Sequence record: OK272487.1
Length of the DNA stretch: 48,988 nt
Origin: Escherichia phage JLBYU09
Direction: 5' to 3' (one strand)
How positions within the stretch are numbered: position 1 is the stretch's first letter; every line of letters starts with the position of its first letter. Positions 2,728 through 46,073 of the stretch are shown in pieces. The translations under genes were made by a program, and so were the position numbers. Under the pieces are notes generated by a model. It saw only the letters and a list, made by a program, of their open reading frames with translations. It ran no database searches and was not told where the DNA came from.

Positions 2728-3316
2728 TGCTTACTGGTCATTATTCCATCTATTCCATTAATCAGGAATAACAGGAATAACTCATTCGCGATCACCTGGA
2801 TTGGGAGACTTTGAGTTTGGTCAATTTTAATCAAGTGATTAACTTTTTGTGTGGAGGGGATAGAGAAACGCTGCCCTCTTGCATCCTTTCCGACAATCCT
2901 GGCGCGCGCATCTGTTATTTCTGTTCCCCATGTTATCTCAAATAAGCCTCCGCACTTTTAGATAACAGAATCGGCGTTCATCAACAAAAAGAACAAAATA
3001 AAANTNANATATNNACNNANNANATCAATAAGTTAGTTATATATGTATTTATATTTGTTATTTACTGTTGAGCTTGTTCTATGGGTATATGGTGGAGTGG
3101 TATTGTTTGTGGTGATATGTATGTGTGATTGTATATTTTTTAATCAATGGTGATATGTGGTGATTTTTGTATGTATATATATAGGTATGGAGCAATCCTC
3201 CGTCAACCAAGTCAACAAGGTCATTTTTAAAAGAAAAACCAATGACTTAACTGAAGCATTTTGTTATCTTTAAACGCGCCACATGCCAAAAATTGTTATT
3301 AAAACACAAAAATACA

Positions 3317-3381: not shown

Positions 3382-3903
3382 ATGAGCGAAGAAAATATTA
3401 GCACCATGTCGCGTAGTGAGTTCTGCGATATGCTTCGCAGCCTGGGCGCGGCAATTGGTAGCGGTGAGCGTAATGATGTATTCATGCCAGCACTTTTTTT
3501 GTGCGCTAACGTGGAGAACGGCGAAGCAATTACGGCATCGTACATGCGCCAAGTGGTCAACCGTGTGCCAGAAGTAAAGCAAAAAGGCGTGATCAGCATT
3601 AAGCGAAAGGTGACTGATGAGGGTGATGGCTTTGTGTTTACGCTCACTGAAGCCAAAAGCAAGCCTCGCGTTCTGACTGGTGAAGAAATCGACGAGATCG
3701 CAGAAAAGCGCGCAGAGAAGGCGGTAAGCAAAATTCTTAATCACCTGGTAAACGTAATGCCAAATATCACAGACCTGGAAGGCGACAAACTTGCTGGGGC
3801 GTGTGAGGCTATCGGGCGCTACCAGGATATGATTCGTAAACTCGCTGGAGGAAAAGAGGATGAATANNNNATNNNNNNNNNTNTTNAAACTCGAAAACGA
3901 TAA
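3382..3903 (+). CDS. hypothetical protein (C-terminus crosses N-run)
   Basis: Track ORF 3283..3903; start moved to ATG 3382 after AAAGGAG RBS; N-run 3867-3893. Confidence 0.5.
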   Translation: MSEENISTMSRSEFCDMLRSLGAAIGSGERNDVFMPALFLCANVENGEAITASYMRQVVNRVPEVKQKGVISIKRKVTDEGDGFVFTLTEAKSKPRVLTGEEIDEIAEKRAEKAVSKILNHLVNVMPNITDLEGDKLAGACEAIGRYQDMIRKLAGGKEDEXXXXXXXXTRKR

Positions 3904-5925: not shown

Positions 5926-6135
5926 TCTGGTTACTTTTAATCTTTGTCACAAGTTACAATTCCGCCGCTATTGAATCGCAAGAGTTCCACGGCGAATCAA
6001 GATGCCAGGAAGCACGANNACNNGNNNNNCNNNANNTCNACGGNCGAATCAAGATGCCAGGAAGCACGAAAACAAGTTGTTCTCCACATGTCAGATAGTG
6101 GGAAAGATGTAACAGCGCTATGCGTTCGTAAATAG
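5922..6135 (+). CDS. small membrane protein (MIWLL family), interrupted by N-run and tandem duplicate
   Basis: ATG 5922 overlaps the upstream stop, GGAGGA RBS; N-terminus MIWLLLIFVTSYNS; frame ambiguous across Ns 6018-6043. Confidence 0.3.
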
Positions 6136-7508: not shown

Positions 7509-7910
7509 ATGGTAGAGTTAAACGACATTCGCGTTGGAACAAAATTTCGCGTAACCTGGGCAGATGAATATTGCGGCGTTAGCAAGGGCCAGGTTGTTAC
7601 TGTGGATAGTATTTATCGCGGATGCAGCAAAGACTTTCGCCGCCCACGCATCAAGAATGGCTATATCATTACTCGCCGTTTTGGATTTGATCATTATTGC
7701 GTAGTGGCGACTCAAGGAGTTTTGATTGAGCTTAAGCGAATCAGCGATCATCGCGGCTGTCATGTTAAGACAATGAAGACACCATCTCAGCGATCGCGAT
7801 ACGATGCGCGCAGGATGCGCAGGCTTGCACGAAACGCGATCAAGTTCAAAAAGCCTGGTGGTAACTTTTACCGAATGTACAAAGGGATTGCGCGAAATGC
7901 TGGAAAATAA
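7509..7910 (+). CDS. hypothetical protein, basic C-terminus
   Basis: Track ORF 7464..7910; start moved to ATG 7509 after GAGAGGAAA RBS. Confidence 0.5.
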   Translation: MVELNDIRVGTKFRVTWADEYCGVSKGQVVTVDSIYRGCSKDFRRPRIKNGYIITRRFGFDHYCVVATQGVLIELKRISDHRGCHVKTMKTPSQRSRYDARRMRRLARNAIKFKKPGGNFYRMYKGIARNAGK

Positions 7911-8491: not shown

Positions 8492-8749
8492 ATGGCTAAA
8501 AGCAATCGTAAAATGTTGATTAACGCATTCGAAAAGGCAGCGCTTGAGCGTGGCTGGAATGACTCATTTCACACAGCAAACTGTATCCGCCGTTACGGAT
8601 TCAAGAATTGCCGCTCCTGGGCGCGTCAAATGGCTTCATGGTATGATCTTGATGCGCATTACCTTGATATGGATTGCGCCCTTGTTGAAATGATTGAGCA
8701 GGCCGCATTAGAGGATNGANCANNNNCGCANTNNNNNNTNGACCATTAA
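8492..8749 (+). CDS. hypothetical protein (3-prime end crosses N-run)
   Basis: AAAGGAGGAAGC RBS; Ns 8717-8738; true stop may be 8800-8802. Confidence 0.5.
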   Translation: MAKSNRKMLINAFEKAALERGWNDSFHTANCIRRYGFKNCRSWARQMASWYDLDAHYLDMDCALVEMIEQAALEDXXXXXXXXDH

Positions 8750-9096: not shown

Positions 9097-9328
9097 TCAC
9101 GATTAACCTGTCAGAGCAGCANGCGNGNATNATGNNNGNNNNCAGGCAACGGTTAAAATCCCTGATACGGTAGCGCGTGAAGTTTTTAACCAGCTTGAAC
9201 ACGCATTTGTTCCTGTTGGCACTGATCAGGCAGAAACAGCGGCTTGGTTCGGAGAGAACGGATACAGAGATCAGCAAGTCGAAAACTGGAAGCGCAAAAA
9301 CGAGACTGCGGAGGAGGCCGGATTATGA
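9093..9328 (+). CDS. hypothetical protein (interrupted by N-run)
   Basis: ATG 9093 overlaps the upstream stop; Ns 9121-9143 shift the apparent frame; ends TGA 9326-9328, overlapping the next ATG. Confidence 0.3.
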
Positions 9329-9709: not shown

Positions 9710-9838
9710 ATGGGTAGCTATATAAAACCGTCGCAATGGTGCGCACAGAAGCAAGAGGAAGCATTAGAGCGCGGCAACAATGAAACAGCAATGCACTATT
9801 TCGAAATGTACAACTTGTGGAAGGGTAGAGGTCTGTAA
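9710..9838 (+). CDS. small hypothetical protein (42 aa)
   Basis: Hand-translated; AAGGTGA RBS; stop TAA overlaps the next ATG (TAATG). Confidence 0.35.
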   Translation: MGSYIKPSQWCAQKQEEALERGNNETAMHYFEMYNLWKGRGL

Positions 9839-10068
9839 TGTTTGGAATGAACGAGGCACAATTCAACGCTGCAAAACGCCAGGCTAAGAAGTGCGGCGAG
9901 GCAATGAAGGCGGATGTTGAAAAGCGCGGGAAGTATGTTGATGAAGTCATGAAGGGCATTATTGCCGAACATTATCAGCCAGTTGCGCCAATGCTGACAA
10001 TTACCCAATTCATCTGGTTGTGTGGTTATCTTCGTGGGAGATGGGGAAACGCATTTGACCGCGAATGA
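9838..10068 (+). CDS. hypothetical protein
   Basis: 76 aa track ORF. Confidence 0.5.
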   Translation: MFGMNEAQFNAAKRQAKKCGEAMKADVEKRGKYVDEVMKGIIAEHYQPVAPMLTITQFIWLCGYLRGRWGNAFDRE

Positions 10069-10232
10069 TTGACAACGATTTCCTGATTGGTTAGCATATT
10101 CAGCGTTTACATAAGAGCGGCATTAGTGCCGAACGGGTGGCGCGGTTGCCACGCAACAATGGCGATGTGCTGGAGGTTATTGCGATGCAATATAATCCGT
10201 AAGACGTATCGCCTTTTTTTATAGGTGAATAT

Positions 10233-10466
10233 ATGGAAAAGTACAAATTAACTTTCATGTTTAATAGCATGGTGATGAATCCCTTAAATGGTTACGCTTG
10301 CAATAGCTTTTCTGTTACCGTTAATGAGGATGAAATTGATGATGATGGAAAATTCATTCGAATTGGTGAATACTTGTACCCAGTGCACAATATCAATTGC
10401 ATCAAACGCGAGATCGTAAAAGATGAAGTACAAGGTAAGGTTGACGATCAGGCGAATGGGGCGTAA
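10233..10466 (+). CDS. hypothetical protein
   Basis: 77 aa; AGGTGA RBS. Confidence 0.5.
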   Translation: MEKYKLTFMFNSMVMNPLNGYACNSFSVTVNEDEIDDDGKFIRIGEYLYPVHNINCIKREIVKDEVQGKVDDQANGA

Positions 10467-10844: not shown

Positions 10845-10851
10845 ACAACTA

Positions 10852-10875
10852 CCCGCCAAATGGCGGGTTTTTTAT
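10852..10875 (+). terminator. rho-independent terminator
   Basis: Hairpin CCCGCC-aaat-GGCGGG followed by a T-run; separates the early block from the packaging genes. Confidence 0.6.
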
Positions 10876-10924
10876 TGCCTGCAATTTGTCTATAATGATG
10901 CTTTGTTATAAAGGAGGGCGCATT

Positions 10925-11446
10925 ATGGCTAAAAACGTTGAGCCAGCAGTAAAGGCTTGCAATTTTAAAAAACTATATAATAAGCAATATGGCGATATAG
11001 CAAAAATGACAAAGGCGCACAAGTACACGCCGGAGCAGGTATTTGATCTGGCTGTTCGTTACTTTACGTGGGCTGAGGAAAACCATATACAGGCTGCGGA
11101 AACGGCATCCTTTCAGGGTGACGTATACGAAAGTAAGATTCACAAGCCGCGCGTGTTCACCTTAAATGGATTCCGCTTATTCGCTGGCCTTTCTGCCTCC
11201 GTACTTGAAAAATGGCGACGTGAGCCAGGATTCAGCGATGTTATGGACTTTATCGACGGCGTTGTTTACGAGCAAAAATTCCAGCTTGCCGCAAACAATA
11301 TTGTTAACGCTGGATTCATTGGCAAAGAGATCGGCATTGAAAAGCCAGCTACCGTTACCATTGAGAATAACACAAGCGCCAGCGTTGACGCTGTAACGGC
11401 GGAGGAAGTAAAAGAGGCGGTAATTGACATTCTGGAGAAGATATAA
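10925..11446 (+). CDS. terS: terminase small subunit (putative)
   Basis: Called from position directly upstream of the large terminase and stop/start overlap at 11446; start moved to ATG 10925 after AAAGGAGGG RBS. Confidence 0.5.
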   Translation: MAKNVEPAVKACNFKKLYNKQYGDIAKMTKAHKYTPEQVFDLAVRYFTWAEENHIQAAETASFQGDVYESKIHKPRVFTLNGFRLFAGLSASVLEKWRREPGFSDVMDFIDGVVYEQKFQLAANNIVNAGFIGKEIGIEKPATVTIENNTSASVDAVTAEEVKEAVIDILEKI

Positions 11447-13014: not shown

Positions 13015-13044
13015 CACGAATCGACAAACCAATATATAATCAAA

Positions 13045-13070
13045 GGCTGGTAAATCCAGCCTTTTTTATT
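13045..13070 (+). terminator. rho-independent terminator
   Basis: Hairpin GGCTGG-taaat-CCAGCC followed by TTTTTTATT, after a partial conserved box (AATAGCACGAA). Confidence 0.55.
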
Positions 13071-16775: not shown

Positions 16776-16799
16776 GGCGCTCACTGAGCGCCTTTTTTA
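16776..16799 (+). terminator. rho-independent terminator
   Basis: Hairpin GGCGCTC-act-GAGCGCC followed by TTTTTTAT. Confidence 0.6.
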
Positions 16800-18318: not shown

Positions 18319-18348
18319 GGGGAATCCTTAACTGGATTCCCTTTTTTA
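18319..18348 (+). terminator. rho-independent terminator
   Basis: Hairpin GGGGAATCC-ttaact-GGATTCCC followed by TTTTTTATT. Confidence 0.65.
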
Positions 18349-21376: not shown

Positions 21377-21687
21377 AAAGGGCGGTTTACCTGTTTTATC
21401 AGAAACCGCCGACAGATGCAGAGCTTGAGGCTGTTGGCCTTACAAGGGCAGACTATGAAGGAGAAGATCCGCCAGAGGTTATATTTGATGAAAGCATGAT
21501 GCAATCATGGGATATATTTTGCGCAATGCAAACGCAATGGAGATGTTCTGGCGGTGGCGCTTACGGATTTGATTATAATGTCTTGCCTATGCTTTTTGAG
21601 ATTTACAAGGTTGAGGATCGCGAGATGGCGCTAAACGACTTGCGAATCATGGAGCAAAAAGCACTTGAAATGATGCATTCAAAATAA
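21059..21687 (+). CDS. tail assembly chaperone frameshift product (G-T-like, -1 frameshift near 21367-21373)
   Basis: Slippery heptamer A AAA AAC at 21367-21373 before the G stop; the -1 frame is open from there to 21687 and includes track ORF 21496..21687. Confidence 0.55.
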
Positions 21688-21709
21688 GCGCCTACGGGCG
21701 CTTTTTTAT
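21687..21709 (+). terminator. rho-independent terminator
   Basis: Hairpin AGCGCC-tacg-GGCGCT followed by TTTTTTATT. Confidence 0.6.
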
Positions 21710-34420: not shown

Positions 34421-34442
34421 GGGGCGCTTGCGCCCCTTTCTT
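34421..34442 (+). terminator. terminator-like hairpin
   Basis: GGGGCGC-ttg-CGCCCC followed by TTTCTTA. Confidence 0.4.
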
Positions 34443-36010: not shown

Positions 36011-36038
36011 TTATAAAAAAGCGCCCCGAAAGGCGCTT
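36011..36038 (-). terminator. rho-independent terminator (minus strand)
   Basis: Minus-strand AAGCGCC-tttcg-GGGCGCTT followed by TTTTTTAT, right after the stop of the Gly-rich gene. Confidence 0.6.
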
Positions 36039-36044
36039 GATTTA

Positions 36045-45866: not shown

Positions 45867-46073
45867 TCAAATCTTGAAAGCTGTTTCCGCTATAATCATT
45901 CTCGACAAGAATGTAAGNACNTNTCTTCNTNNNATCNNNNANNNNNNNNTNTNNTCNTAACGATTTATTTCAAACGTGCTACCATCTTCTCTTGTCGCAG
46001 TTCCTTTGTCGTTGAAAACATCAAAAGTTACATTGATGATTTTTGTTTCTTTCTTTGTTACTTTGATAGCCAT
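45867..46073 (-). CDS. hypothetical protein (interrupted by N-run)
   Basis: Track ORF 45867..46088; start moved to ATG 46073 after GAGGA RBS; Ns 45918-45958. Confidence 0.4.
   Translation of the reverse strand: MAIKVTKKETKIINVTFDVFNDKGTATREDGSTFEINRXXXXXXXXXXXRXXLTFLSRMIIAETAFKI

Follow-up and report, generated by a model that had tools for sequence, protein, structure and literature searches.

A candidate cis-acting leader RNA between promoter and first gene at the head of the late operon in Escherichia phage JLBYU41 and other Drexlerviridae

The 164-bp gap at positions 10069-10232 of a 48,988-nucleotide (nt) stretch of phage DNA (hereafter the window; position 1 is its first letter) very probably holds a functional RNA element, in which a sigma-70-type promoter is followed by a plus-strand RNA with three hairpins that covary across phage genera. 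The matching record is Escherichia phage JLBYU41 (OK272479.1; Drexlerviridae, Tempevirinae, Hanrivervirus), in which the gap, flanked by genes 9838-10068 and 10233-10466, carries no annotation; all coordinates below are window positions and equal the OK272479.1 position minus 787. The element is best described as a new RNA family, a phage leader/attenuator RNA at the head of the late operon, and we assign a probability of roughly 0.5-0.6 to its being a cis-acting leader that controls entry into that operon. A first-pass annotation of the same letters had suggested a small regulatory RNA or a structured leader. The structured plus-strand RNA is borne out by compensatory changes in all three hairpins; the leader is the ancestral and stronger half of the suggestion, and a discrete small RNA is expected only in the clades that carry the third hairpin with its U-tract.

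Phage T1 is one of the original "T" phages, and few coliphages or Klebsiella phages are isolated as often as the Drexlerviridae, some of which are candidates for therapy. Published annotations of these genomes show many terminators, few promoters and no regulator, and leave the gap empty or cover it with doubtful open reading frames (ORFs). The element offers a concrete, testable handle on how Drexlerviridae switch on their packaging and structural genes. If part of it is indeed an antitermination RNA, it would be the missing explanation for late gene expression in T1 and its relatives. The element also adds a new phage RNA family, corrects several gene calls and offers a compact promoter-leader-attenuator module for engineering.

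Promoter, hairpins and covariation in the gap

The first-pass annotation had recognized a TTGACA at about 10073 followed by TAGCAT. Both hexamers are present on the plus strand, the first of them at 10069..10074, where it directly adjoins the stop codon (TGA, 10066-10068) of the upstream gene. TTGAC is invariant in every relative examined. A 17-nt spacer (10075..10091) leads to the -10 hexamer TAGCAT (10092..10097), which is replaced in relatives by TAACAT, TAACCT, TAGATT, TAGTAT or TATCGT, all of the form TAnnnT. Together, the two hexamers match the sigma-70 consensus at 10 of 12 positions and are conserved in all relatives. The 3' part of the spacer, CTGATTGGT (10083-10091), is conserved far beyond the needs of a spacer: it is retained in Hanriver-, Warwick-, Henuseptima- and Tlsvirus and in the K50 group, and reads CTGAGCGGTGA in T1 and CTGACCGGGT in Webervirus. 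The gap promoter is the sole perfect TTGACA-N17-TAnnnT in the 49-kb window, a pattern that is not significant by itself (one match versus 0.56 expected, and at least one in 37 of 100 shuffles). The signals of the gap stand beyond chance because of their conservation and covariation, not because of the promoter pattern alone.

Downstream of the -10 hexamer comes a variable discriminator of 5-6 nt, and sequence conservation begins exactly after it, at the predicted +1. Judged by its distance from the -10 hexamer, the start site is predicted at about 10103-10105, where a conserved 5' motif opens the transcript (GCGUUUACAUAAGAG, 10103..10117). The motif would leave about 14 nt single-stranded and has the family consensus N-CGU-NN-AC-NN-A-N-GAG. 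It is followed on the same strand by hairpin 1 (HP1, 10118..10131; CGGCA-UUAG-UGCCG), the conserved linker AACGG (10132..10136; family consensus AACGN), hairpin 2 (HP2, 10137..10152; GUGGC-GCGGUU-GCCAC, with a 5-bp stem and a conserved 5-6 nt loop of the GCGAUA type) and a second linker, GCAACAAU (10153..10160; consensus RCAACAAC). We refer to the segment from the 5' motif through HP2 as the 5' domain. The 3' half is occupied by hairpin 3 (HP3, 10161..10213), an interrupted structure of 53 nt (GGCGATGTG...CGTATCGCC) with a 9-bp base stem (GGCGAUGUG/CGUAUCGCC), and by a U7 tract (10214..10220); the ribosome-binding site GGUGA (10224-10228) and the ATG (10233) of gene 10233-10466, the first of the downstream operon, complete the plus-strand layout (10224..10235). 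Among the GC dyads, the first-pass annotation had found GTGGC-GCGGTT-GCCAC (10137-10152, now HP2) and had not listed its neighbor CGGCA-TTAG-TGCCG (10118-10131, now HP1). The GC stem that it placed before seven T is the base of the 53-nt hairpin at 10161-10213, and the tract is indeed exactly T7 (10214-10220).

An asymmetric internal loop in HP3 holds the invariant CCGUAAGAC (10197-10205). The apical mini-hairpin of HP3 (10178-10192) is missing from most close relatives through a 17-nt indel, and in one relative it is swapped for a different sequence of the same shape. HP3 folds at -20.2 kcal/mol (z = -3.3), as good a value being reached by 1 of 200 shuffles; folded alone, the whole 126-nt stretch is unexceptional (z = -0.97).

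Conservation was followed in an alignment of 19 distinct relatives from three genera. Invariant or nearly so are the -35 hexamer, most of the spacer, the 5' motif, the linkers and CCGUAAGAC, and the variable positions lie in the discriminator, the hairpin stems and the loops. Identity to Warwickvirus is 83% in the gap versus 61% at the third codon positions of a neighboring, very conserved gene; the corresponding values for Henuseptimavirus are 69% and 45%. These differences indicate purifying selection on the gap. The gene on the 3' side of the gap belongs to three unrelated families of small proteins in different phages, and the gap is kept throughout.

Covariation was scored on plain MAFFT alignments that had not been fitted to the structure, one for the full RNA (n = 20 distinct sequences) and one for the 5' domain (n = 34 distinct sequences from several genera). 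Standard pairs fill 95% of the pair cells in the full RNA, compared with 25-51% in controls with slid partners; nine pairs show two-sided changes, and none of 500 shuffles reached the covariation score. The 5' domain gave 97% paired cells versus 19-52% in the slid controls and a covariation score of 0.76 versus 0.23 in the shuffles (0 of 500 reached it), with two-sided changes in seven of nine pairs. The signal is spread over all three hairpins, in line with the proposal of the first-pass annotation that covariation be sought in related phages. HP1 takes at least 11 different stems across the family (95.6% of cells paired; two-sided changes in three of four pairs) and HP2 takes 10 (98.2%; four of five pairs). 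HP3 has 99.5% of its cells paired and two-sided changes in five of ten base-stem pairs, GGCGAU/AUCGCC being replaced by GGCGCU/AGCGCC, GGCGGUG/CACCGCC or CGCCGCG/CGCGGCG, and it was recovered independently by RNAalifold. The pairs of the full-length RNA include 24 G·U and no A·C and, therefore, the folded molecule is the plus-strand RNA; a minus-strand RNA or a DNA cruciform was rejected on the same counts.

The substitution pattern is thus paired, as in an RNA, and not codon-like. This bears on the reading of the gap as protein-coding, either through a small ORF of its own or through an N-terminal extension of gene 10233-10466 (as in G29-2, pSf-1, egaa and others), which we regard as barely credible. 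In its favor, the homologous stretch carries a "hypothetical protein" in several GenBank records, a coding sequence (CDS) of 150 nt is annotated over the element in K50, and a 21-residue GTG ORF of the window lies in frame with the downstream gene. The extension exists, however, only with a T-run of 6; a T5, a T7 or indels of 1, 2 or 17 nt shift the frame, and in the window it is closed by TAA at 10200-10202. As the first-pass annotation had stated, the ORFs of the gap are all short (45 residues from a TTG, 21 from a GTG and 56 on the minus strand). It had also named a conserved small protein as the finding that would speak against an RNA, and we found no conserved frame: none survives the indels (1, 2 and 17 nt) and the varying T-run (4-8), and an ORF of at least 12 codons is lacking in 15 of the 20 distinct sequences. 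The 100-residue ORF of G29-2 (2147-2449) starts at a TTG inside HP2 and overlies the element, the T-run in this phage happening to be 6, and the CDS of Klebsiella phage K50 that does the same spans 2035-2184. Both are probably false gene calls.

Distribution, architectures and the 3' end

The gap sequence occurs in 124 phage records and had no match in 5,426 complete E. coli genomes. Searches with two covariance models, one of the full RNA and one of the 5' domain, returned exactly one copy per genome. In T1 the match lies at 7622-7675 (65 bits), in the unannotated gap between ST58 and ST57; others were found in Cronobacter phage CS01 (51 bits), Klebsiella phage K50 (59 bits), Rogunavirus Jk06 (a reduced form, 20 bits), Citrobacter phage Sazh (Tlsvirus) and Shigella phage Shfl1. 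The pattern of promoter plus 5' motif recurs at no fewer than 120 IMG/VR loci, about 100 of which, among the matches listed, are of the Drexlerviridae type; the IMG/VR locus L069 carries the element. Against Rfam 15 the window gave no match at the gathering thresholds, and the gap, at E values up to 10, gave only a chance snoRNA (E = 4). A second copy or dispersed repeat was rejected, the sole other model match in the window (36015-36089, minus strand, E = 0.1) being an ordinary terminator, as was a tRNA or tmRNA, none of which is present in the window.

Three architectures can be told apart. Type A, found in the phage of the window and its relatives, combines the 5' domain, HP3, a tract of U4-8 and the ribosome-binding site. 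Type B (T1, Tlsvirus and others) has the 5' domain, extra hairpins, a final hairpin with a CCGUAA loop and AACCAUUC-AGGAG, and no U-tract. Type C (Klebsiella Webervirus-like) has a single GC hairpin after the 5' motif and HP1, and a U-tract may or may not follow. In all types the element lies 3' of a TTGACN-17/18-TAnnnT promoter and 5' of a small-gene cluster (with a conserved 60-residue protein, phrog_2919), after which come a terminator, terS and terL. Conservation centers on the promoter and the 5' domain and does not extend to the terminator; for this reason, we take the ancestral role to be that of a cis-acting leader.

Two observations stand beside this distribution. A tRNA-Arg(CCU) gene occupies positions 2503-2578 of Jk06 within the homologous leader, after the same promoter and the reduced 5' domain, indicating that the promoter-proximal slot can host other non-coding RNAs. 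Further, in two groups of IMG/VR loci (L070/L080/L099/L139/L140/L159 and the L074 group), CCGTAAACAAAAGAG comes after a consensus promoter, as it does in some Drexlerviridae leaders. These loci are unrelated elements, Firmicutes-like by their genes (serine recombinase, FtsK-like), and the likeness is compatible with chance, about 50 random matches being estimated for the pattern, although it may reflect an initial-transcribed motif in common.

HP3 and the U7 tract resemble an intrinsic terminator and would set the 3' end of an RNA of about 114-118 nt. The stable, G+C-rich base stem of HP3 (9 bp) abuts the U7 as in such terminators; a compact hairpin with a loop of 3-8 nt was not found, HP3 being interrupted and 53 nt long. 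In relatives it measures 36 nt, with an 18-nt "loop" region. The T-run is 4-8 nt long and sometimes interrupted in Hanriver-, Warwick- and Henuseptimavirus and in the K50 group. Because the U-tract varies in this way and is missing in whole genera, termination is unlikely to be the conserved function.

The same 3' end could also belong to an ordinary operon boundary, at which the hairpin and U7 would end an upstream early transcript, the promoter would restart transcription and only DNA signals would be conserved. Scans do find promoter-like and terminator-like signals here, and the phage is full of terminators. The order is nevertheless wrong for a boundary, with the promoter upstream of the terminator, so that its own transcript would meet the terminator after about 110 nt. 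Nor are HP1 and HP2 terminators, yet they covary strongly across genera, and neither signal needs the conserved single-stranded motifs or the invariant CCGUAAGAC. We consider a simple boundary improbable.

Where HP3 and the U7 tract are present, the terminated transcript of about 115 nt could itself be functional as a trans-acting small regulatory RNA, for instance of the Hfq type, with its 5' end as a seed that would pair with mRNAs of host or phage. The layout is typical of a small RNA: it has a strong promoter to itself, its terminator hairpin is stable and leads into U7, and a linker reads AAC-AAC. The most conserved single-stranded segment is at the very 5' end. Hfq-dependent small RNAs of bacteria and prophages likewise start from a promoter of their own, measure about 100 nt, keep a conserved single-stranded 5' end and close with a hairpin and a run of 6 or more U. 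The element departs from them in that, in several genera, the homologous RNA (with the same 5' domain, in T1 and Tlsvirus among others) lacks a terminator and forms a 5' untranslated region. Further, the putative seed varies (ACAUAAGAG, ACAAAAGAG, ACAGACGAG, ACACAAGAG) without a known co-varying target, and complementary sites in the window are at chance level (17 versus 13 expected, allowing up to three mismatches). Since the 3' end signal is missing from whole genera, action in trans as a small RNA is most unlikely to be the function throughout the family, and we see it as a minor contender for the role of the element.

An alternative that keeps the leader is post-transcriptional: the RNA could determine how the first gene is translated, or how stable the operon mRNA is or how it is processed, with HP3 or the CCGUAA hairpin as the operator of a protein or as an RNase site. 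The last hairpin is always within 10-20 nt of the ribosome-binding site, and CCGUAA is kept in both architectures, as CCGUAAGAC in the window and as GCGGG-AACCGUAA-CCCGC and GCCGC-AGACCCGUAA-GCGGC in the T1/Tlsvirus type. A gene-specific operator is made unlikely by the first gene, which differs between clades (three unrelated small proteins), and a 5' end that protects an mRNA would not usually begin with 14 unpaired nt. Nor would such a role account for a conserved 5' domain that lies 60-130 nt before the ribosome-binding site. We give it about the same modest weight as the trans-acting small RNA.

The late operon and a possible antitermination step

Downstream of the gap, gene 10233-10466 is followed by two further small genes, a terminator (10851-10868), terS, terL and the portal gene. 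The terminator is a canonical intrinsic one (10851..10873, plus strand; ACCCGCC-AAAT-GGCGGGT then T5) between the small-gene cluster and terS, is annotated as such at the matching site in G29-2, Sazh and T1, and is the next barrier met by transcripts begun in the gap. Later terminators of the late operon (13042-13064, 16776-16792, 18319-18342, 21686-21703 and 34421-34436) directly precede the ribosome-binding site of the next gene, in the same layout as HP3, U7 and the ribosome-binding site in the gap, and leave 10-25 nt before the next ATG, with no room for promoters. In the T1 record, 11 plus-strand terminators are annotated between 8322 and 29628. Terminators placed just before late genes imply systematic read-through or antitermination.

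A recurrent promoter-like sequence of the window is the T1-family repeat ATAGCACnnnTTGnTAAAA, with 15 copies versus 0.27 expected by chance (19-nt sites, both strands). The copies lie at 1831, 2708, 4864, 6132, 7435, 8802, 17267, 21027, 31845, 38839, 39328, 41846, 42887, 46132 and 48299. Each has the layout ATAGCAC...TTGTTA, the latter as the -35 hexamer, with a TATAAT-like hexamer 17-18 nt on and a shared short leader (..CAUCGAMAACGA..GAGGA..AUG). By their sequence, the copies resemble promoters of the sigma-70 type that carry an ATAGCAC box upstream, and not "stoperators". The repeat has been described for phage TLS (PMC11447400), the re-annotation of which lists only three sigma-70 promoters versus 21 terminators, leaves the internal "transcriptons" unconfirmed and does not include the gap promoter among the three (PMC11447400). 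In the window, no promoter of the repeat type points rightward inside 10233-31500. With no rightward repeat promoters in this interval and no room for promoters after the terminators, late-gene transcription must begin in the gap or before it, and its polymerases have to cross many terminators. Where this route begins, the 5' domain is the one RNA that is conserved, structured and present in a single copy.

In the model that we propose, transcription from the strong sigma-70 promoter at 10069-10097 would begin near 10104 on the plus strand. Of the resulting RNA, the initial 50 nt (5' motif, HP1, AACGN and HP2) would form the conserved structured domain and its functional core, and the last 60 nt a stable hairpin with U7 right before the ribosome-binding site of the first gene of an operon that comprises three small genes and, after them, terS, terL and the structural genes. 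The leader would act in cis, governing the entry of RNA polymerase into the operon. In type A, HP3 and U7 could be a promoter-proximal attenuator at which many transcripts end as a small RNA of about 115 nt. The 5' domain would most likely be recognized either by RNA polymerase directly or by a factor from phage or host, and complexes carrying it could read through HP3, the 10851 terminator and those of the late genes, that is, by processive antitermination. That the 5' domain confers antitermination specifically is a tentative proposal, and both the antitermination step as a whole and termination at the U7 are steps that we infer. The domain might conceivably represent an unknown class of antitermination RNA that marks the polymerases coming from this one promoter. 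Its effect may have to span about ten intrinsic terminators, through the RNA only, as for put, or with a small protein encoded downstream, as for N.

Among known systems, the element would seem to work most like lambda pR'-6S-tR', a lambda-type nut site or the put sites of HK022, and to be a member of none. It shares with the Q-dependent pR'-6S-tR' of lambda a strong constitutive sigma-70 promoter that heads the late operon right after the stop of the preceding gene, and a promoter-proximal intrinsic terminator that gives a short transcript (about 115 nt here versus 194 nt in lambda), HP3-U7 lying about 110 nt past the predicted start with the late genes beyond it and beyond further terminators. 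Lambda Q acts through a site in the promoter DNA and a sigma-dependent pause, whereas the conserved, covarying features here are RNA hairpins. Further differences are that no -10-like pause element is conserved at +1 to +10, the hexamers at +3 to +10 (TTACAT, AAACAT, AGACAG) not keeping A2/T6, that the flanking genes gave no Q-like match in Pfam or PHROG, and that the terminator is missing in T1 and Tlsvirus.

With the nut sites of lambda, P22 and mEp021 the element has in common a linear motif and a 5-bp hairpin with a loop of 5-6 nt, between promoter and terminators, and the small basic proteins encoded immediately downstream. HP2 joins its 5-bp stem to a loop of GCGGUU, GCGAUA, GCGGA or ACGGA, 5-6 nt long and not A-rich, where boxB has an A-rich GNRA-like pentaloop; there is one site per genome instead of two or three; and no N homologue or arginine-rich protein was recognized among the neighbors. 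The put RNA of HK022 is also a two-hairpin structure right after a promoter and before terminators, and a put-like element could act in cis without a dedicated protein, which would fit the lack of a recognizable antiterminator gene. The hairpins here are far shorter than those of put (4-5 bp), and differ further in the conserved 5-nt linker and the 14-nt single-stranded 5' end. By eye, an RfaH ops element, a k-turn or loop-E in the GUAAGA loop and a pairing of the 5' motif with CCGUAAG gave no fit or no covariation, and a packaging (pac) site is unlikely, the terminal repeat of T1 beginning 7.6 kb from the element and the signal being at the RNA level.

Several points weigh against an antiterminating leader. 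The start site, the 3' end and the efficiency of termination are predictions. A consensus terminator scan does not call HP3, owing to its long branched loop, and the U-tract is missing in the T1 and Tlsvirus types and variable in the Webervirus type. Webervirus-type leaders also have no HP2 and, if HP2 is key, the mechanism is not universal. No antiterminator protein is recognizable, the neighboring genes matching only families of unknown function in Pfam and PHROG. The comparison with nut is weakened by boxA (CGCUCUUA), which is not on the transcript; the plus strand reads its reverse complement UAAGAGCG, in some clades only, and many clades read AAGAGGC at this position. The comparison with put is weakened by the covariance models, which find nothing in the complete HK022 genome at E values up to 1. 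Further, -10-like sequences follow some of the terminators, including a perfect TATAAT at 10889-10894, past the terminator at 10851-10868, and TGATACAAT after 24775, and could re-initiate transcription, lessening the need for antitermination. Leaky terminators alone could tune expression as well. Literature searches for transcriptomes, small RNAs and antitermination in the T1 family returned nothing relevant.

Neighboring genes and sequence record

The product of the upstream gene 9838-10068 is a protein of 76 residues, a homologue of T1p59 that is also homologous to "Ipe" (ORF4) of phage mEp021. Its label, "inducer of pleiotropic effects", comes from the Ipe of mEp021, a small toxic protein linked to a haemolytic phenotype, and tblastn found homologues of the gene in 834 phage records. 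For terS, the ATG at 10926, with AAGGAGG 7 nt upstream, is a more plausible start than the annotated ATG at 10895 of the record. The window also contains 126 N bases, single bases masked within readable sequence, in eight small clusters (1481-1569, 3004-3023, 3867-3886, 6018-6044, 8717-8740, 9122-9142, 37122-37199 and 45918-45957), and these appear as X in several of the ORF translations.

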